Positions 3,396-64,000 of a stretch of DNA of 64,000 nucleotides are shown piece by piece. Location: contig OX597830.1 of the NCBI GenBank assembly GCA_951406725.2, forward strand, positions 75,888,001 through 75,952,000. Reading direction: 5' to 3'. Position 1 is the first letter of the stretch, and every line of letters starts with the position of its first letter. The stretch comes from Octopus vulgaris (Eukaryota). The position numbers and the translations under genes were made by a program. The notes beneath the pieces are model-generated. The model made no database searches, was not told where the DNA came from, and saw only the letters and a program-made list of their open reading frames with translations.

Positions 3396-3623
3396 TATTC
3401 TGTTGTGTTTGGGGAGAGTCATTTTCTTTTTGTGCCTTATAATTTAACACACTCACCGGTAAAATTTCCACTTATTTCTTATTTTTATTTTCTTAAAATT
3501 TTCCAGTGAGTGTGTTAAATTATAAGACACAAAAAGAAAATGACTCTCCCCAGACACAAGAGAATATGCTTCAACACACGAACTCATATAAAGAATCTTG
3601 CAAACCAAATCCAAAAACGAAAT
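3396..3623. mobile_element. Fold-back family A, copy 1 (Penelope-like pseudo-LTR remnant) between (TA)n tracts
   Basis: 3396-3467 is the reverse complement of ~3496-3567. Same sequence at 42411-42648 and 60575-61012. Confidence 0.75.
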
Positions 3624-8476: not shown

Positions 8477-8779
8477 TTTTACTTTTTATCTTATACTACT
8501 TTTTATACTTTTTGATAGTTATATATATTTAATAAATAAATAAATAAATAAATTTTTAAAAATAAATAAATAAAAAATAAAAAATAAAAAATATATATAT
8601 GTGTATATAAATTTATAAATATAAATTAATAATTTTAAATTTTTAACTTTAAATTTAAATAATTTAAATTTCGAATTATATGTTATATATATATATTGGA
8701 AGGTTTGGTGATGATGTACAGGTATTTTATATTCGAAGAAATGAGGTACTCAGAAATTCGGATGGTTTTATATTTACAG

Positions 8780-9140
8780 ATATTTATTTGTATATTACAT
8801 ATTTTTATACATCATATAACTTAGATGATGTATTAGCGCTTTCTCCCATTCTAGTGGGGTTTTCAAATCAAACTAAGTTCCTGTGTGAAAAGTTTTGACC
8901 ATTTTATAGTGTTATTGAGTTTGTAGTGGTGGGGAGGAATATAAGACAGTACAAGAGGGTGATGGATGAGGAGAAAGTGAACTGTCTTATGTCCCTCCCC
9001 ACCACTACAAACTCAATAACTATAAAATGGTCAAAACTTTTCACACAGGAACTTCGTTCGATTTGAAAACCCCACTAGAATGGGAGAAAGCACTAGTACA
9101 TGATCTAAGTTATATGATGTATAAAAATATGTAATATACA

Positions 9141-9148
<8 letters not shown>
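8780..9148. repeat. Long inverted repeat (~170 bp arms, 30 bp spacer) flanked by (TA)n
   Basis: 8780-8950 is the near-exact reverse complement of 8981-9148. Confidence 0.9.
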
Positions 9149-9176
<28 letters not shown>

Positions 9177-19467: not shown

Positions 19468-19818
19468 AACCACATGGTCCCGGATTCAGTCCCACTGCGT
19501 GGCATCTTGGGCAAGTGTCTTCTACTATAGCCTCAGGCCGACCAACTCCTTGTGAGTGGATTTGGTATACGGAAACTGAAAGTAGCCCGTCGTATATATA
19601 TGTAAATATGTATATGTACCTGTGTCTGTGTTTGCACACCGCACCATCGCTTGACAACCGATGACTTTGTGTTTACGTCTCCGTAACTTAGCGGTTCAGC
19701 CAAAGTGTTCGATAGAATAAGTACTAGGCTTACAAAGAATAAGTCTTGGGGTCGATTTGTTCCACTAAAGTCGATGCAACAGCATGGCCGCTGTCAAATG
19801 ACTGAAGCAAGTAAAAAA
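19468..19818 (+). mobile_element. CORE-type tRNA-derived SINE family A (5'-truncated)
   Basis: GGATTCAGTCCC B-box, 'cttgggcaagtgtcttctactatagcc' core, internal (TA/TG)n, tail 'cagcatggccg..gtcaaatgactgaa'. Confidence 0.85.
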
Positions 19819-27168: not shown

Positions 27169-27563
27169 CTCTTTTACTTGTTTCAGTCATTTGACTGTGG
27201 CCATGCTGGAGCACCGCCTTTTAATCGACAACTCGACCCCGGGACTTATTCTTTTGTAAGCCCAGTACTTATTCTATCGGTCTCTTTTGCCGAACCGCTA
27301 AGTAACGGGGACATAAACACACCAGCATTGGTTGTCAAGCAATGCTAGGGTACAAACACAGACACACATACACACGCATATATATATATATACATATATA
27401 CGACGGGCTTCTTTCAGTTTCCGTCTACCAAATCCACTCACAAGGCTTTGGTCGGCCCGAGGCTATAGTAGAAGACACTTGCCCAGGGTGCCACGCAGTG
27501 GGACTGAACCCGGAACCATGTGGTTGGTAGACAAGCTACTTACCACACAGCCACTCCTGCGCC
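27169..27563 (-). mobile_element. Full-length SINE family A; other copies at 28465-28876 (+), 40289-40723 (-), 47610-47804 (+), 54716-55205 (+), 25068-25220 (-) and many fragments
   Basis: Head GGCGCAGGAGTGGCTGTGTGGTAAG (A box), GGGTTCAGTCCC (B box), CORE-like 'ccttgggcaagtgtctt', internal microsatellite, LINE-like tail. Confidence 0.9.
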
Positions 27564-27959
27564 TATATACGTATGTATGTATGTATGTATGTATGTATGT
27601 ATGTATGTATGTAGGAGACGGATAGAATTAGCCCTGGGGTCAATTTGCTCGACTAAAAGCGGTGCTCCAGCATGGCCGCAGCCAAATGACCGAAACAAAT
27701 AAAATGATGTGTATGTGTGTTTGGTAAATTTTGTCTACTACTATTTAAATGGCGATTTCCTCAACCAATCTTTGTTTTAGACCCTCACGTACCATTCTTT
27801 CTCTCAGACTCACTCTCCCTGTCTCTGCCTCTCTATCCCAACCTCACACTATTATTATTATTACTACTATTACTAATACTACTGCTCACCACTCACCACC
27901 ACCACAACTCACCGTCTCCAACCTTGCGCCAAGCGGGACACTTTAAGAAAAAGAAAAAA

Positions 27960-28215: not shown

Positions 28216-28637
28216 TTTCAAAGATAAGTGTTGGATTCAGAGAGGGAGAGAGGGAGAGAGAGAAAGAAGGGGTAGAATGAGAGAGGAAGTGAGAGAAAGA
28301 GAAAATATCCTTGTTTATAAATATATTTCGGTGATACTTCGGTATGCGATCTACATGTTTCATTTATTTATTGTGCCTTAAATAAAACATTCATACATTT
28401 TCATACATTTATTTAAAAAATATTAAAATGAAGCAGATTTGAAACATGTTTACTAATTTTATGGGGCGCAGCAATGGCTGTGTGGTAAGTAGTTTGCTTA
28501 CTAACTACATGGTTCTGGGTTCAGTCCCAATGTGTGGCACCTTGGGCTAGTGTCTTCTACTATAGCTTCGGGCCGACCAAAGCCTTGTGAGTAGATTTGG
28601 TAGACGGAAACTAAAAAAAGTCTGTCGTATATATATG

Positions 28638-28668
<31 letters not shown>

Positions 28669-29435
28669 TTGTATGTGTGTGTGTGTGTTGTGTGTATATG
28701 TTTGTGTGTCTGTATTTGTCCCCCCAACATCACTTGACAACCGATGCTGGTGTCTTTACGTCCCCGCAACTTAGCGGTTCGGCAAAAGAGAGCGATAGAA
28801 TAAGTACTAGGCTTACAAAGAATAAGTCCTGGGAGCGATTTCTTCGATTAAGGGCAGTGCTCCAGCATGGCCGCAGGGAGGGAGAAAGATAAATATAAAC
28901 ATACCCGTGACTGTGTGTATATGTGTGTGAGTAGTGTGTGTGTGTGTGCGTGCTTTTATATACATATACATGATTGTGTAGTAAGAAGTTTGCGACACAA
29001 CCACAAGTTTCCGGGTTCAATTCCACTGCGTGATACCTTCGCCATCTGTTTTCTATGGTAGCCCCGGGTTGACCAAAGCTTTGTGAGTGGATTTGAAAGA
29101 TGGAAACCAGTTGCATAGTTAGAGTGTGTGCTTAGTGACAAAATACCGCTAAGCCTTTTTGCCCGTCTTAACGATTCTGAATTTAAATTCCACCAAGGTT
29201 AGCTTTCCCTTTCATCCACTCGGGGTCGATAAAACAAGTACCAGCTAGGTAACGTGGGTCAATGTAATCTACTGAACCCCTCTCTCGAAGTTGATGTCCT
29301 TCTGCCAAAATTTGAAACCATTATATATAGCTGTAACAAAGGCAGCAAGCTGGTAAAATCGTTACCGCCCTGGACGAAATTCTAAGCAGCATTCCTTACG
29401 ACATTTTATGTTCTGAGTACAAATCCTAGTACTAG

Positions 29436-33600: not shown

Positions 33601-34200
33601 CTTTGACTACTGCTCTCAGTTATGGTCACCATCCAGTGTCAAGTTGATCACAGAGCTCGAGGCGATCCAACGTAGCTACACGAAGAAGATAGCCTCTATG
33701 CAGAATGTAAGCTACTGGGAAAGACTCAAGAGATTAAAACTATATTCCCTGGAGCGTAGGCGGGAAAGATATGCCATAATATACATCTGGAAGATCCTGG
33801 AGGGACGTGTCCTGAACTTTGGCATCGAGAGTTACGCAAATGCCAGAACTGGGCGCCACTGCATGGTGCCTAGGACTCCAAACTTGCCATCAAGATGTAG
33901 GACAAGATTCTGTGATAGCCTGGGCTTCCGAGGCCCACAGCTCTTCAATATCCTCCCGAAGAACCTGAGAGACCTGCATGGGGTGGATGCAGATGTCTTT
34001 AAAATGAAGCTGGATCTCTTCCTGTCAGGTGTCCCAGATGAACCAACTTCACGGCAGGAGGGGCAGATGAGGGCAGCTGCATCGAACTCTCTCATGCACC
34101 AAATGGCAGTTGCTAGAAACCAAGTAGCAACACCAAATGGCGGTGCCCCAGCATGGCCACAGCTCATAAGCTGAAACTAGAATCAATCAATCAATCAATC
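33601..34200 (+). mobile_element. 5'-truncated CR1-group LINE (3' 600 bp) inserted in (TA)n
   Basis: Open frame FDYCSQLWSP..SYWERLKRLKLYSLERRRERY..FKMKLDLFL, 3' stem-loop, (AATC)n tail. Highly similar to 55648-56265 in reverse orientation. Confidence 0.92.
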
Positions 34201-39498: not shown

Positions 39499-40520
39499 TG
39501 TGTGATTTTGTGTCATGCTCTAATACATACAATGTGTTCTATAGTAATATATATATATATATTAATAAATATACAAGCAAAATTTATGTGTGTATATATT
39601 TTTGTAGAAGGGTGCATATGAATATATATCAATGCTTGATATAAAATGCTCACATGTGTGTGTTTGTATATATATATATATATATACATACACGCACGCA
39701 CACAAACACACTCACCTACACACACTCACACATATATACATATATATAAATAAATATATATATATACACAAATAGAATTACTCACGCAGACAGTCACACA
39801 CACATATATATGTTGCACAATGAATTAACATTTTGAACGTTGTGTTGATATATCATTTTTATCATTTTATCTAGTTTCAGCTCACGACTTGTGGCCATGC
39901 TGGGGCACCGCCGTTCTATATATATTTTATTGATGTATTTTGTATCCATACAATATTATATGTGTGACAAAGTATATATTAGCGTGTTACAGTGTCATTG
40001 GCGGGTAGCTTTGTAAGTTTTCTTTTGACAGTTTTGGTTAATACCTGAAAAATGAATAATTTAATTTATTATTTATAACTTAACTTTTACCAAATCTCAT
40101 GGTGCTTAAACGAAATTTGTAAAGGAATAAAACCTCGAAAAAAATAGAATAAAATAATATTCATAAGCTTAAAATAAAATTAAATAAACTAGGGAGAGTA
40201 TTGTAATTCGCTTGAAGCATTGTCTATTGTTTGTAAAACATATTATTACTAAATAAACGAAATTTCTCATCTCTTTCTCTAACTTTTTCTCTTTTACTTT
40301 TTCAGTCATTTGACTGCGGCCATGCTGGATCGCCGCCTTTAGTCGAGCAAATCGACGCCAGGACTTATTCTTTGTAAACATAGTACTTATTCTATCAGCC
40401 TTTTTTTTTTTGCCGAACCGATAAGTTACGGGGACGTAAACACACCAGCATCGGTTGTCAAGCGATGCTGGGGGACAAACACAGACACACGCACGCACAC
40501 ACGCACGCACGGACACACAT

Positions 40521-40560
<40 letters not shown>

Positions 40561-41202
40561 TATATATATATATATACATATTATACGACGGACTTCTTTC
40601 AGTTTCAAATCCGCTCACAAACTATAGTAGAAGACACTTGCCCAAGGTACCACACAAAGGGGAATGAACCCAGAACCATGTCGTTGGTAAGCAAGCTACT
40701 TACCACACAGCCACTCCTGCGCCTGTGTACATACAATAAAAATGTTTCTAATTTTATAAATTTTATAAATGTAACCTTAAAGCGCTACATAGGAAATCTA
40801 TCTGCAAAATTTCAGAAATGTGTTGTTCCGAAAGTTACATATATATATCCTGGGTCTGTTGCGTTAACTTTCACTGTATCTCACTTTTTCCTCATTTTTT
40901 CACTTCCTATATTTTATAGGATGTAAAGTGTGAATGGCGATTCAACCCTGGAACTTTTTGACACGATGGCTATTACTGAATAAAATATACGCGTGCGTGT
41001 ACATGTGTACAATTATATGCGTTTGTTTGTGTAGCTGGAGTGTGTGTTTGCTTGTGTGTGTGTGCCTGTATGTGCCTGTGTCTGTGTCAAAGTACATTAC
41101 AACTTACAACCATTATATATGTACACACATACACATACGCACACATATATATATATAATATGTATGCATATATTTATATACATATATGTATATAAATTGA
41201 TG

Positions 41203-42410: not shown

Positions 42411-42414
<4 letters not shown>

Positions 42415-42648
42415 CGTTTTTCGGATTTGGTTTGCAAGATTCTTTATATGACTTCGTGTGTTGAAGCATATTCTGTTGTGTCTGGGAAGAGTCATTTTCT
42501 TTTTGTGCCTTATAATGCAACACACTCACCGGTAAAATCTCCACTTATTTCTTATTTTAAATTTCCTAAATAAGTGGAAATTTTACCAGTGAGTGTGTTA
42601 TATTATAAGGCACAAAAAAAAATGATTCTCCCCAGACACAACAGCATA
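42411..42648. mobile_element. Fold-back family A, copy 2
   Basis: Inverted arms homologous to 3396-3623 and 60575-61012, flanked by (TA)n. Confidence 0.75.
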
Positions 42649-42840
42649 TATATATATATATTTACTATTTTACTCTATTACTTGTTTCAGTCATTTGACT
42701 GCAGCCATGCTGAAGAACCATGTTTAGTCAAACAAAATCGACCCCAGGACTTAATCCTAGTACTTATTCCATTGGTCTTTTAGGCCGAAACACTAAACAC
42801 ACGGTGGTCAAGTGATGGTGGGCAATACAGATCCACAAAC

Positions 42841-47571: not shown

Positions 47572-49069
47572 TATATGTATATATGTATATATGTGTGTGT
47601 ATGTATGTTTGTGTGTCTGTGTTTGTCCCCCTAACATTGCTTGACAACCGATGCTGGTGTGTTTACTTAGCGTTTCGGCAAAAAAAAAAGAGGCCGATAG
47701 AATAAGTACTAGGCTTACAAAGGAAAAGTCCTAGGGTCGATTTGTTCGACTAACGGTGTGCTCCAGCATGGCCGCAGTCAAATGACTGAAACAAGTAAAA
47801 GAGATATATATTATATATTATAAATTGCATATAACATAATGCTTGTTCAAATAAAATTTATATATGAATGTTTTATTTCTCTTTTTAATTTAGAATAAAA
47901 TTCTGACCAGCCACCTCATTCACAGCAGAGTTGTGAAGGAAAGCATCTTCCAAAAGGAACTGGAACCATAATAAAAGATTTACACTTGGTGAAGTTTGAT
48001 TTGAAGCATGTAAAGACGTTGTATTGATCACGTTGAATCACGTATTCTTGAAAACGATCATGTAATGAAATATTCGATATGATTGTAATATTCTTTTCTA
48101 TTCTAGGCACAAGGCCTGAAATCTTTATAGAGGGGACCAGTCGATTGGATCAACCCCAGTACGTAACTGGTACTTAATTTATCGACCACGAAAGGATGAA
48201 AGGCAAAGTCGACCTCAGCGGAATTTGAACTCAGAACGAAAAGACAGATGAAATACCTGTTTCTTTACTATCCACAAGGGGCACAAACAAGGACAGACAA
48301 ACGGATTAAGTCGTTTATATCGACCCCAGTGCCTAACTGGTACTTAATTTATTGACCCCAAAAGGATGAAAGGCAAAGTCGACCTCGGTGGAATTTGAAC
48401 TCAGAACGTAACGGCAGACGAAATACGGCTACGCATTTCATCCGGCGTGCTAAAGTTTCTGCCAGCTCGCCGCCTTGATTGTAAATATATAACGGAGAAA
48501 TAAATTGCTCGTTCACAATAAAAGACACAAGTTTGTGAGTATGTATTCGAGATTGTTTTCCCCTTTGTGGTTGGGCCTGTAAGTAAAGAAACAAAAATAC
48601 CAAATCCCCAAATATTTTTCAGCATATAACTCGAATTTTTCAGACCTAAATTTACTGCTGAGAAAGGTATGTCGACTATACACAAACACAACTTTGGAGC
48701 ACCAAAAATTTCACGTGAAACGCAACCGGATTTGGAAAGATGTCGGAAAAAACGGTAGTCTGGAATTGTAAATTCGGGAAAGGGGCTGATGGTAGGAACG
48801 TATATGATCATTGGAAGATGCCGAATATTGAGGAGAATTTTTTTTTTTTGTTTGTTTGTTCTCCACAGAAACTTGTTTGTTTGGGACGGAAAGATCTATG
48901 AGGAAGAGACGAGCTATCGAAGGGTGGATTAAGGATTGGAGCTTTGTGTATCGAACCGCTGAGGTCGATAAAATGAAGTACTGGCGAAGTACTATAGTGA
49001 AATATGTTTGACTACATACGTTCCTCGGATTTGAAACCTTGAGGCAATGAATGAAAAGCAATAATGTTA

Positions 49070-55563: not shown

Positions 55564-55647
55564 GAGACAGAGAGAGCTTTTGAAGTGATGTATAGTTATT
55601 GTATATTTAGAATAATGAGGTAGTCAGAATGTTGGATGATTATATAT

Positions 55648-57091
55648 GATTGATTGATTGATTGATTCTAGTTTCAGCTTATGAGCTGTGGCCATGCTGG
55701 GGCACCGCCATTTGGTGTCGCTACTTGGTTTCACTTCATGGAGGCTTTCTAGCAACTGCCATTTGGTGCATGAGAGAGTTCGATGCAGCTGCCCTCATCT
55801 GCCCCTCCTGCCGTGAAGTTGGTTCATCTGGGACACCTGACAGGAAGAGATCCAGCTTCATTTTAAAGACATCTGTATCCACCCCATGCAGGTCTCTCAG
55901 GTTCTTCGGGAGGATATTGAAGAGCTGTGGGCCTCGGAAGCCCAGGCTATCACAGAATCTTGTCCTACATCTTGATGGCAGGTTTGGAGTCCTAGGCACC
56001 ACGCAGTGGCGCCCAGTTCTGGCATTTGCGTAACTCTCGATGCCAAAGTTCAGGACACTTCCCTCCAGGATCTTCCAGATGTATATTATGGCATATCTTT
56101 CCCGCCTACGCTCCAGGGAATATAATTTTAATCTCTTGAGTCTTTCCCAGTAGCTTACATTCTGCATAGAGGCTATCTTCTTTGTGTAGCTTCGTTGGAT
56201 CGCCTCAAGTTCTGTGATCAAACTTGACACTGGATGGTGACCATAGCTGAGAGCAATAGTCAAAGTGGCTTAGGACAAGTGTCTTCCAGAGGACCATCAT
56301 TGTTTCTTGTTCTCTTGTTCTAAAGGTTCTAAGAATCCATCCAGCCAGCCGTCTACATTTCATTGTCAGTTTAGCAACATGTACATGAAAGGTCGCGTCA
56401 TCACTCATGTGAATACCCAGGTCACGCACTGATTGTGCCTCTGGGATTGCAATCCCTCCGGGTCCAGTGTATTCATTGGGTATTGCATTCAGTTTTGCAT
56501 GCTGATAGTATAAAGCTTGAAACTTTCCAGCATTGAACTGCATGCTATTCTTTTCAGGCCACTTGTATATTTCGTCCAGCTCACATTGCAGGTGTTTAGT
56601 GTCCTCAGGGTTCTGTATTGCCTGTGAAACTTTTGTATCATCTGCATAACTTGTGATCGTGGCTCTCTGCGTGGCTGAGGGCATGTCTGAGAGGGCCATT
56701 ATGAACAGTAGTGGTCCCAGAACAGTGCCCTGCGGAACACCGCTCACTATTTGTGTGTTAATGGAGGTGGCCCCATTGGCTACTACCACCTGACTTCTAT
56801 CCTTCAGAAAGTCATGAAGCCATTCTCCCAGTTTTCCAACTATGTTGAGATCACGCAGTTTGTGACATATCATTCCATGATCGACTTTATCAAAGGCCTT
56901 TGCAAAGTCGAGATATATCACTTCCACATTTGAGTGGTTGAGCAGCCGTTTCAGCACCCAGTCATAGTGTTGTAGGAGCTGAGTTAAACAGCTTCTCCCT
57001 GGTCGGAAACCATGTTGGGTGTCGGGCAGCAAGTCATTCTCTTCAAGGAAGGTGATCAGCTTCCTTCTGACTATTCGTTCCATGACCTTGC

Positions 57092-57097
<6 letters not shown>
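55648..57097 (-). mobile_element. 5'-truncated CR1-group LINE with reverse transcriptase domain and one frameshift (~56220)
   Basis: QHGFRPGRSCLTQLL, YLDFAKAFDKVDH, GVPQGTVLGPLLF, YADDTKV, RDLGI, LYSLERRRERY. (AATC)n tail, flanked by TA repeats. Confidence 0.95.
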
Positions 57098-57133
<36 letters not shown>

Positions 57134-57136
<3 letters not shown>

Positions 57137-57362
57137 TTTACATCTTATTCATATTTATAGCGCTTTCTTCCCTTATCAGATTTATCAAAAAAATGCTTTA
57201 AAGTCAGATTGCTTGGCATTTTCATATATATATAAAGAATTTTCTGGGGTTTGCCAAGCAATTCTTTATATATAATAACCACAAGAAATCTAATTTTAAA
57301 TCATTTTTTGATAAATCCGATAACGGAAGAAAGCGCTAAGAATGTAAATAAGATGAAAATAA
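57134..57362. repeat. Imperfect fold-back palindrome in (TA)n
   Basis: 'tagcgctttcttcccttatcagatttatcaaaaaaatg' pairs with 'cattttttgataaatccgataacggaagaaagcgcta'; centre ~57250. Confidence 0.85.
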
Positions 57363-58289: not shown

Positions 58290-59260
58290 CTTGAAAACCG
58301 TCAAAATTTTACAGCTGAGGAATTTAGCCCTTAACGATATGCATGCCGGTACATTAGAAGATGACGCTCCAGCTTTAACGACAGAACAAAAGTAGACAGC
58401 TCAATTTATGAGGGAAAGAGAGAGTGTTAAAGATGACCCTATGGCTGGACGTCCTGCACCTACCACCAACAAAGAAAACATTGATTGCATTCACCACGTA
58501 GTGATAGATGAGAAGCGATTGATTATAAATAAAATAGCCATTGCTATTACTAGATAACATTGAGAGAAGAATATTTTGCACAATGTATTTGGCATGACGG
58601 AGGTTTCTTCTTAGTGAGTACCACGTCCTCTGATATTTGATCAAAAGTGCATCAGGCTGATAACATCACGGGAGAATCTAGCATTGTTTGCGGTAGATCA
58701 AGCTGATTTCCTTGGACGTTTCATAAGCCAGAATGAGTGTTAGATTTATCACTTTGAGCCTGCGACAAAGAGACAATCCATGCAGTGGAAACACTCCTCT
58801 CCACATGCTTCAAAGAAGGCCAAGGACGTTTCATCCCCGGGAGAGTGATGTCTTCAGTTTTTGTCAGATGCAAAAGACATTGTGTTCCTTGGCTGTCTTC
58901 AAAAAGGCCATACCATCAATGAAGAGTAATATGCTAACTTGTTGAGTCAGTTAAAAACGGCTACAAACACCAAACGCCGAAGAAAACTGACGAAATGGAA
59001 TCTTGCTTCATCAGAGCAATGCTCCAGCATGCAAACACTTGGTTTCAATGGGTGTTGTGCACGACTGTAGCTTTGAACTGTTTAACCACCCTCCAAATTC
59101 TCTTGATTCTCCATATTCTCCTCAACACACTATCATCTGTTCCCCAACATGAAAAAAATACTTGGCTGGGAACTAGTGTCACAGTGATGATGACGTAATA
59201 TCCGCTGTTGATAACAATTTTTATTCAGCAGGATGGATGCTTCTTCACCAATGTGATCAT
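58290..59260 (+). pseudogene. Degenerate mariner (DD34D) transposase
   Basis: Fragments DDPMAGRP, VPRPL (WVPxxL-like), HFEPATKRQSMQWKH, HQSNAPA, HPPNSLD (YSPDL-like), YHLFPNMKKYLAG with many stops and frameshifts. Confidence 0.85.
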
Positions 59261-60083: not shown

Positions 60084-60574
60084 CGGCATTCCAGTAGTAA
60101 ACCCTATATTAGATGATCATAATATTTGTCTGAAAACCATAATTTTTCGAGATTATCACTCAGACATAAAAACATAATATGAATTCAAATATTAAATTTA
60201 TAAAGTGGGAATAGAAATTTGAGAAGTTGTACGTAGTGGGGCAGTGGTCCGGAAATATTTCTTTCTCAATGATTCCGTAGAAATGGTAACATCTGTACAG
60301 CAGCTGACGTATATTCAATGTTTTTATATGTTCTTACGTGTTTATTTTCAAAATTCCTTAATTTCTTTCCCACTGAATAAATGATCCACTTTGCAGTGTG
60401 CGTTAATATGCTTACGTATCCAAAGACGCATGTAAATAAGTGTTTGTGTGTGTGTATGTACGTATACATGTATGCATGCATACACGTATATATGTATGTA
60501 TAAATGTATTCATGCACCTATGTATGTATATATTCATGCATATGTGCATATAAGATGGATATGTGTACGTCTAT

Positions 60575-61012
60575 ATATTCTGTTGTGTCTGGGGAGAGTC
60601 GTTTTCTTTTTGTGCCTTATACTTTAACAGACTCACCGGTAAAATTTCCACTTATTTCTTATTTTTATTGTCCAAAAATTTTCTTTGCGTGTTGCAACCT
60701 TTTCAGTAGTCTTAGTCAAAACTATTGAAACGGTTGTAAAACGGAACGTAAATTTTAGGACAATGAAAATAAGAAATAATTGAAAATTGGACAGACGAAC
60801 CTAGTCAATACAATCGACATGAGTCAAGACTATTGAAAACTTTGCAAGTGGCAACGAAAATTTTAAGAAAATAAAAATAAGTGGAAATTTTAGCGGTGGG
60901 TGTGTTAAATTATAAGGCACAATAAGAAAATGACGCTCCCCAGACACAACAGAATATGCTTCAACACATGAACTCATATAAAGAATCAGCAAACCAAATC
61001 CAAAAACGAAAT
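60575..61012. mobile_element. Fold-back family A, copy 3: one inverted plus two tandem pseudo-LTR units, each with a variant hammerhead-like core
   Basis: Unit 60575-60712 (-), partial unit ~60719-60790 (+), unit ~60822-61012 (+). Motif CTA-TTGAAAA-N-(G/T)TTGC..GCAAC-GAAA-ATTT-TA(G). Confidence 0.7.
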
Positions 61013-61264
61013 GTATGTATGCAGTTATGTATGTATTTATGGATGTACTTGCACTTCGGCTGGTTGGTTGGCTGTAAGTATACATATATGCATGTACTTA
61101 TTGTATGAGTGTGTGTGTGTGTGTGTATACATATATATATATATATATATAATAACAAAGGGGGAAATTAATTAATTAAGAAGTAATCAGTAATTTCACC
61201 AAGTAGGATTCGGCATGTAAAAGACCAATTCATGGTAAGTTTAGTATTATTTAGTATTATTTAG

Positions 61265-61305
<41 letters not shown>

Positions 61306-61897
61306 GTATGTATATGTATATGTAAGCATGTATGTATATATATGTGTGTGTGCGTGTAAATACATGCATGTATATGTGTATACATATATAAATATGTAGG
61401 TGTTTATGTGTAGATGGATGAATGAATGTCTATGAATGTATGTATTTATGTATGTGTATTACTAGGTAGGTGCATATGAGAGTATGTATGTGTGTGTATG
61501 TATGTATGTATGTATGTATGTATGTATGTATGTATGTATGAGTGTATCGATGTCTGAGTGGCTGGTCGGACGGGCGGACGGAGGGTGTACTGATGAGTGT
61601 GCGTGCGACCTCCATTAAAACTGATAAGGTAATACAGTAACGAGGAACAGAAATATAGCACGAAAATGCTTCATATTCTTTAGTATCATGTTTAAAGAAA
61701 TTACATTGGACGAAATGTGATATGGAAAAATATATCTATATAGCACGCATATACATACATACATATATATATACACAGACGCACACACATATATATGCGC
61801 ATGTACGTAGTTGTATAAATGTATGCATGTGCGTATGTCTAGGTATGTGTGTATATATATATATATATATATGTATGATAATATGAATGTATGTATG

Positions 61898-61956
<59 letters not shown>

Positions 61957-62394
61957 TTTATGCTCTCAGTACAAATTTTGCCTAGGTCGACTTTGCCTTT
62001 CATTCTTTTGTGGGTGATATAAGAAATACCAGTTCAACAGTGGGGTCGAATTAATCGACTTCTCCACTCTCCACAAACTGCTGGCCTTGTGCCAGAATCT
62101 GAAACCGATATTTTAACATTCGTGCACCAGCAAGCCTGCTGCTCTCGGCCTAGAAATAGTGACGAAAAAAGCTCTACCTGGACTTTCTTCTACTCTCCTA
62201 CACCTGGACTTCTGCACTTCGGCTGCACTTCTCCTACCCATGGATTACACTGGAATCTTCCTTTGATGAGAAATCCCTCCAATACACCATGACATTTGAC
62301 CCTTTTGAACTTTTCTAAACCCTTTTTGTACTTTCTGCTGTTTCCTATTGTCGTTTCTCTCAATCCGTACTTGTCCTTGTTTACTTTTGTGTTC

Positions 62395-62431
62395 CTTTTT
62401 GTCGAAGAGGCCTAGGCTCGAAACGTAAAAG
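62395..62431 (+). ncRNA. Minimal hammerhead-like motif with variant core in repeat ~62120-62535
   Basis: CTTT-TTGTCGA-A-GAGGCC-TA-GGCTC-GAAA-CG-TA-AAAG. Stem I CTTT/AAAG, palindromic ACGT, GUA triplet. Confidence 0.5.
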
Positions 62432-62720
62432 ACTTTCTCACTTCCCGAGCGTTAAACTAATACATCTGTTTGTTGTTTACAAACCCGTCATCGTCTTTTG
62501 TTATTCTTTTTTTTTTTTTTTGCAAATTCTCACTATATATGTGTGTGTGTGTTAATGTTTGTTTTTATGGTATAATGAAAGTAGTTTTTCATTAAATTGA
62601 AGGATTAAGCAATAGGTCTGGTAGAGTACAATGTCCGATGATGGCTTAGCAGTGCGACTCTTCGATTCACTGTCAATACTATTCATCATAAAAATCATAC
62701 ATGTATGTATTTATATGCCC

Positions 62721-62811: not shown

Positions 62812-62864
<53 letters not shown>

Positions 62865-62865
<1 letters not shown>

Positions 62866-63214
62866 ATATTAACTTAGAGATAAAACCACTATTAGGCAAA
62901 TCAAACAGTGAAAAGCATAAGCCAATACATAAAATTAATTTTAAAATATAAAAGTTAAGAATAAAAAATTATTTAAATAATTTAAGCTTAAATAAATTTA
63001 TATATATATGTGTGTATGTATGTATATTTTTATATTTATATATTATTTTATTTATTAATTATTTATTTATTTATTTATTTATAAATATCAAAAGTATTAC
63101 AAGTTTAATAAAAGATAAACTTTTAATACTTTTGATATTTATAAAAAAATAAATAAATAAATAAATTAATTAATTAATTAATTAATTAATAAAATAATAT
63201 ATAAATATAAAAAT

Positions 63215-63248
<34 letters not shown>

Positions 63249-63360
63249 TTGTATATATATATATAAAATTCATAAGCTTAGATTATTTAAATAATTTTTT
63301 TATTTTTAACTTTTATATTTTTGATTTGCCTAATAGTGGTTTTATCTCTAATTTAATATA
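62865..63360. repeat. ~500 bp AT-rich fold-back palindrome flanked by (TA)n
   Basis: TTAGAGATAAAACCACTATTAGGCAAATC at the left end is inverted at the right end. Symmetry continues inward to a centre near 63110. Confidence 0.88.
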
Positions 63361-63425
63361 ATATAATATATTTATACTATAAAATTGGATTTAATGCTAA
63401 ATCTAATTTTTCCCTAATATTATTA

Positions 63426-63456
<31 letters not shown>

Positions 63457-64000
63457 ATATGCATGTATTCATATATATATATATAGATATATGTATTTAT
63501 GTGAGTATATATATATATATTTATATATCTGTATGTGTGTATGTTGTATGTGTGCATAACTGAATGCTTATGCATGATGATGTCAAACTGGCAGAATCGG
63601 TTAAACACGATATGCTTAACTTCTTCCAGCTCTTTGCACTGTGAGTTCAAATCCTTCCTAGTTAGACTTTGTTTTTCCTTCTTTCAAGTTCTATAAATTT
63701 AATACCGGTTGCATACTCATGTCGATTGTATTGACTAGGTTCTTCTGTCCAATTTCATTGCTACCTCACCAAAGACTAGTTCTCTGAGAATGTTAGTGAT
63801 GCATTCCTCTCAACTGTATCAGAAAATTCCGTTCTGCACCCCCCTCCCCCACGTAAATGTATACCACTAAGTGGCATTTCGTCCGTTTTTAAATTTTGAA
63901 ATCAAACACAGCAGAGGTCAACTTTGCATTTCATCCTTTCGGGATCGATAAAATGAGTACCAGTAGAGCATTGGGGTCGATGTAATCGACTTACTCTCTC

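Follow-up and report, generated by a model that had tools for sequence, protein, structure and literature searches.

Degenerate A8 hammerhead motifs in a fold-back insertion of Octopus vulgaris, probably derived from the end module of a Penelope-like element

Minimal hammerhead ribozymes have been described in Penelope-like elements (PLEs). About 1,300 minimal motifs with a U3-A8 core pair were reported in Schistosoma mansoni, where they were found via the Cercyon PLE (Cervera and De la Pena 2014, PMC4209133), and one of these motifs (Fig. S3, row S. mansoni(4)) shares the UUGAAAA core and the U17 of the motif described here. According to these reports, the minimal hammerheads of PLEs lack a genuine helix III and are believed to act as dimers, with low activity (PMC4209133; PMC6765202). 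Covariation of C3-G8 to U3-A8 was also described in natural hammerheads and the variant was active in vitro (Perreault et al. 2011, PMC3088659). The U3-A8 core pair is therefore not new, being already published for PLEs and for other natural hammerheads. In descriptions of endonuclease-bearing (EN+) PLEs, an insertion consists of a 5'-truncated partial tandem next to which lies an inverted, likewise truncated copy; it has a one-sided tail of 30-40 bp, is frequently located in (TA)n and may contain host DNA captured between the repeats (PMC8557442; PMC3846280). The role of hammerhead cleavage in the spread of PLEs has been called unclear (PMC8557442). Penelope-like families have been counted in an octopus genome, in a text that gives no sequences (PMC13282606).

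We analyzed a window of 64,000 nt of Octopus vulgaris DNA (contig OX597830.1, positions 75,888,001 to 75,952,000), in which a repeat that we call family A forms a fold-back insertion at 60575-61012. The insertion begins with an inverted, 5'-truncated arm without a tail (60575-60713, minus strand), which stands head-to-head with a partial unit (60714-60788, plus strand) whose 3' end is cut short. A 41-nt spacer (60784-60824) separates this partial unit from a full unit of about 190 nt (60822-61012, plus strand), which has lost 7 nt in comparison with the other arms and ends in a 55-nt tail (60958-61012, plus strand), present on this side only and followed by a TA/TATG microsatellite. Two more family A fold-backs, at 3396-3623 (plus strand) and 42411-42649 (minus strand), have both arms truncated and are without the hammerhead core. 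An inverted truncated arm, arms of unequal length with differing joining centres, a tail of 55-56 nt on one side and TA-rich microsatellite flanks were observed in all three copies, and a partial tandem in one of them. The two other copies, near 3.4 kb and 42.5 kb, carry the same tail sequence, which all three inverted arms lack. The search for target-site duplications in the microsatellite flanks of two of the three copies gave only AT-rich matches of 5-7 nt, none of them standing out.

The spacer is identical at 40 of 41 positions to 63715-63755 on the opposite (minus) strand, 2.9 kb from the insertion, which is its probable donor, and short runs of letters are shared at both spacer joints (microhomology). 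As judged from these matches, it is likely a locally templated insert, probably made when copying jumped to a neighbouring DNA template as the element integrated. Contig depth over the spacer was 58-68 in X1 and X2 and 0 in X3 and X9, four public runs that are presented below. The inverted-plus-tandem, Penelope-like layout proposed in the earlier note agrees with the descriptions in PMC8557442 and PMC3846280: as in EN+ PLE insertions, we observed a head-to-head inverted truncated arm, a partial tandem, a one-sided tail, (TA)n targets and captured DNA. Unlike the insertions described there, family A consists of the end module only, and its tail measures 55 nt instead of 30-40.

Three degenerate hammerhead units lie in the insertion, at 60673-60709 (unit 1, minus strand), 60722-60758 (unit 2, plus strand) and 60830-60866 (unit 3, plus strand), where the earlier note had placed them, and their gap-free alignment (48 nt, 88% mean column identity) returned the consensus given there. 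This three-unit majority reads CUA, UUGAAAA, G, GUUGC/GCAAC with a 5-nt loop, GAAA, AU, UU and UAG; unit 1 departs from it at three of 48 letters and the other two units at seven each. Stem II of the majority has five of five pairs, is closed by G10.1-C11.1 and leaves one extra base after A9. The GAAA of positions 12-15.1 is kept in two of the three units, AU-UU (palindromic 15.2/16.2, U16.1-U17) in all three, and helix I CUA/UAG, of 3 bp only, in the majority and unit 2. The statement that no single copy is perfect was borne out, with none of the three units intact and two or three structural positions defective in each. Unit 1, with the core CUGAAAA (C3 at 60706, A8 at 60701), has C3·A8, G10.1·A11.1 and a U·U in stem I. 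The defects are a C at position 9, a U at 13 and a G·G in stem II for unit 2 (U3 at 60725, A8 at 60730), and U10.1·C11.1 and a C·A in stem I for unit 3 (U3 at 60833, A8 at 60838), the predicted cut of which falls between 60863 and 60864, after UUU. The U3-A8 pair is thus found in two units, and not three times as had been claimed; the C3·A8 pair of unit 1 is, judging by its letters, broken. Units 1 and 2 share one variant downstream of the motif and so were possibly derived from one template.

We then compared the majority with a minimal-hammerhead descriptor (C or U at position 3, G or A at 8, a perfect stem II of at least 4 bp and a stem I of 3 bp). The majority matches this descriptor, as does only one of 50,000 dinucleotide shuffles of a 187-nt element composed of the three-unit majority and the remainder of the right unit. 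Single units folded no better than their shuffles (z of -0.78, 0.35 and 0.62). Over the whole window, the strict descriptor gave neither canonical nor U3-A8 motifs, and with one stem mismatch allowed it returned unit 1 and one unrelated match at 57305. With Rfam, 17 matches at E up to 10 were obtained on 60575-61020, none a hammerhead, and 642 on the whole window, of which the 150 listed were all microsatellite-driven and under gathering scores. On its sequence, the three-unit majority is a minimal type I hammerhead, a real motif with predicted self-cleavage.

The predicted fold of the whole locus is a hairpin of -182.7 kcal/mol (z = -19.7), and none of 100 shuffles was as good. Long inverted arms with such a fold, together with the absence of an ORF and of an Rfam match, would suit a DNA-type fold-back element, MITE-like or similar, whose likeness to a hammerhead arose by chance. 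We consider this very unlikely, given the unequal arms and different joining centres of all three copies, the tail on one side and the single descriptor match among 50,000 shuffles.

The motif resembles that of Cercyon in S. mansoni by its type I order, UUGAAAA, the extra base after A9, G10.1-C11.1, the near absence of helix III, the palindromic 15.2/16.2, U17 and the 3-bp helix I, and Cercyon motifs also lie often on opposite strands, 100-700 bp apart (PMC4209133). In contrast, family A has different stems and flanks, A-U at 15.2/16.2, no linked PLE ORF, and a G as bulged base where the consensus in PMC4209133 has H (not G); the C3·A8 pair of unit 1 is not among the rows of its Fig. S3 that we compared. 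The hammerheads of Perreault et al. are not described, in the sections of PMC3088659 considered, as PLE-borne minimal motifs, whereas the copies in the window are defective.

Published features of PLE minimal hammerheads include the extra base between 9 and 10.1, the G10.1-C11.1 pair, the palindrome at 15.2-16.2 and the swap to U3-A8. The explanation that we favor, and hold with good confidence, is that the locus is an old insertion, now dead, of a module from the 3' end (pLTR and tail) of a PLE family with an endonuclease, and that this module carries a minimal type I hammerhead with A8. Several points argue against a PLE: the tail of 55 nt in comparison with the 30-40 nt described, the stem I of 3 bp, the UUU triplet, the lack of an Rfam hammerhead match and the lack of a target-site duplication that stands out. 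No PLE ORF was detected with Pfam among 149 filtered frames of the window, nor was an autonomous partner found, and the only match above the cut-off in these frames was RVT_1, in a LINE-like fragment at 56208-57137. This domain (E 4.4e-25) belongs to a non-LTR retrotransposon at 55649-57137 (minus strand), a 3' fragment of which, 95% identical, lies 21.6 kb away in opposite orientation at 33601-34199 (plus strand).

To describe family A beyond this locus, contigs of four public runs (coded organisms A, A, B and E) were placed on 60500-61100, and 16,606, 21,433, 7,073 and 7,679 contigs matched in the respective runs. Family A is very abundant, in several related genomes; the summed contig depths given below are no measure of copy number. 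Eight majority changes inside the hammerhead motifs were found among the 40 listed of 64 difference rows. Six of these eight, at 60674, 60684, 60731, 60737, 60744 and 60866, restore structure, with contig shares of 77-99% in each of the four runs, and the other two are in loop II (60691 and 60850). Unit 2 is repaired by the contig majorities at 60731, 60737 and 60744, while stem II is restored at 60684, 60737 and 60744, and stem I at 60674 and, in unit 3, at 60866. For the U10.1 of unit 3 the contigs offered no repair, with no T>G left over and no C>G listed; this defect may be common to a subfamily or hidden by clipping. The six repairs and the rarity of the motif in shuffles both uphold the hammerhead reading of the earlier note.

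In the listed rows, the contig majority differs from the locus at no fewer than about 7 of 139 left-arm positions and about 8 of 191 right-unit positions. This divergence of about 4-5% suggests that the insertion is old. The locus itself is most likely dead, since every unit is broken and two of them would be buried in a hairpin of -183 kcal/mol. Within the predicted hairpin, unit 2 pairs with the antisense of unit 1, and unit 3 is exposed, without an intact partner.

Positions 3 and 8 were read across the family indirectly, by comparing the per-run counts of each change type with the listed rows (40 of 64). The sign expected of a G8 is T>C at 60701 or, at 60730 and 60838, A>G. In X2 and X3 neither change was left over, whereas X1 retained one T>C (and no A>G) and X9 one A>G (and no T>C); therefore, no canonical G8 class of at least 5% is present in X2 or X3. 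These counts suggest, if indirectly, that A8 is fixed in the family and that position 3 is a mixture of C and U.

The evidence on position 3 points both ways. For C3, the change 60706 G>A is absent from the 40 listed rows (of 64), in which the smallest summed depth is 34,000, despite a summed depth of at least about 500,000 passing 60710-60713, and five of 15 listed long left-arm pieces end 3-5 letters beyond 60706, which fits a match at that position. For U3, four of the same 15 pieces break off precisely at 60705, the point at which a mismatch at 60706 would end them, no T>C of at least 5% is left in X2, X3 and X9 for 60725 or 60833, so that the contigs spanning these positions carry U3, and 1-3 G>A changes per run are unexplained. 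The 15 come from 32 listed pieces of about 53,870, one piece spanning the centre being excluded; contigs sort onto the best-fitting unit, and what is drawn from them depends on the ranking and clipping rules. Taken together, these indirect signs suggest that both C3 and U3 are common in family A, and a large class of its members probably carries C3·A8. A compensatory change might be present here in both of its steps, the broken C3·A8 and the repaired U3-A8, within one PLE family of high copy number; we rate the odds of this reading as slightly less than even. Alternatively, selection could maintain U3-A8 as the consensus of the whole family, in which case the C at 60706 would be a mutation specific to this copy. 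This is possible and we regard it as rather doubtful: it accords with the U3-A8 of two of the three units, with the U3 signs above and with the downstream variant of units 1 and 2, which may come from one template, but it does not sit easily with the missing G>A at 60706 or with the pieces that run past this position. For UUGAAAA as the variant of the family, the part that stood is its presence in two units; the third has C3·A8, and the contig tables suggest that both are common. Given this unit, the mixed contig signs and the publication of U3-A8 in 2014, the pair is weakened as the defining, notable state of the family.

Inosine at position 8 supports hammerhead cleavage. An amplified, abundant C3·A8 class, rather than a product of decay, might accordingly be imagined as a natural editing-switched hammerhead, in which A-to-I editing of A8 within the double-stranded transcript of the fold-back would restore a C3-I8 pair. 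Very high hyper-editing and dsRNA are described in octopus (PMC5625713). We consider an editing switch of this kind extremely improbable: editing along a long hairpin would also affect A6, A9, A13 and A14, and the motif is buried in the predicted hairpin.

Joints between contigs and the locus were concentrated a few bases upstream of stem I, with 10 of the 15 listed (of 333) at 60821-60826 or at the equivalent 60714; none of the 15 lies at the predicted cut of unit 3. A step in summed depth at the predicted cut site, seen as a drop between 60654 and 60674, is confounded by mismatch density and was given no weight. In the other copies, two of four truncated arms have 5' ends that fit the cut site; this is a weak sign, as both joints lie in AT-rich microhomology and none of the 15 listed family joints falls there. 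These results also bear on an origin from a non-LTR retrozyme, a small circular RNA of tandem repeats whose hammerheads are active. The definition of such elements asks for two or more tandem units in succession, each with a complete hammerhead, and their origin from PLE pLTRs has been argued (bioRxiv 10.64898/2026.07.22.740005). The unit of family A is non-coding, about 190 nt long and has a type I hammerhead, and two units stand in direct order. However, in 60575-61012 full units do not follow one another head to tail, nor do two complete tandem units stand in succession: the unit in the middle is partial, none of the motifs is complete, and among the 15 listed joints most cluster upstream of the motif and none lies at the cut. 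A retrozyme is therefore an unlikely source.

Under the PLE explanation, a PLE reverse transcriptase/GIY-YIG enzyme encoded elsewhere would have copied into a TA microsatellite a short RNA whose start lay several bases 5' of the hammerhead, with an inverted truncated copy added during insertion and one template switch onto DNA 2.9 kb away. By analogy with published PLE work, two tandem U3-A8 motifs of the ancestor may have paired via the palindromic AAUU, which would supply two shared pairs, into a double hammerhead with weak cleavage behind UUU. Copies with C3·A8 would be expected to be crippled, which suggests that cutting is not needed for the spread of short copies. Similarly, the 5' ends of the copies lie upstream of the motif, so that they would have been made from uncut templates, and cleavage seems dispensable for short copies.

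Hydra-1_Obim, an octopus PLE of the Hydra clade, was considered as the parent of family A. Like family A, it has a hammerhead near its 3' end and (TA)n targets (PMC8557442, file S2), and unlike family A, its core is the canonical CUGAAGA, with unrelated stems (PMC8557442); it was rejected on this difference between the hammerheads. In the supplement of PMC8557442, four family A motifs had no matches and a fifth, an 8-mer, occurred at five unrelated places. Pattern scans of viral, genome and metagenome collections gave no further family A copies. The literature covered contained no report of the family A motif or of C3·A8 as an amplified class, although C3·A8 forms may already be described by Lünse et al. 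(2017), who treated hammerhead variants of PLEs. As a probable PLE, family A is a further abundant family whose hammerhead has A8. A mixture of C3·A8 and U3-A8 across many copies, if true, would offer a test of whether cleavage matters for the spread of PLEs, by comparing the amplification of the broken class with that of the paired class.

Other features were observed in the window. A second fold-back family at 8712-9159, with arms at 8769-9159 that are 88% alike, has a one-sided piece (8712-8773) that recurs at 55586-55647. Both of its arms have a hammerhead-like UUGAAAA core, at 8831-8869 (minus strand) and 9060-9098 (plus strand), followed in the minus arm by a palindromic AGCGCU after GAAA; these motifs have two defects, and 2.5 such matches are expected per shuffled window. 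A degenerate minimal hammerhead of canonical type lies at 62395-62431 (plus strand), with U3·G8, U6 and a stem I CUUU/AAAG, in a single-copy segment of about 62140-62545 that may represent the 3' terminus of a different PLE family. At 58822-58860 (minus strand), an intact CUGAAGA core with GAAA and GUC has flawed stems I and II; it is single copy in the window and a possible relic of another PLE hammerhead. The CUGAUGA at 61590-61672 (plus strand), with a later GAAA, a 4-bp stem, a loop of about 55 nt and no stem I, is probably due to chance. An AT-rich fold-back of about 540 nt at 62844-63381, with arms 76% alike, has no second copy in the window and no hammerhead match. Finally, SINE-like interspersed repeats are present in many copies of 70-88% identity, among them 19469-19812, 27170-27570, 28424-28876, 40282-40765 and 47585-47803.
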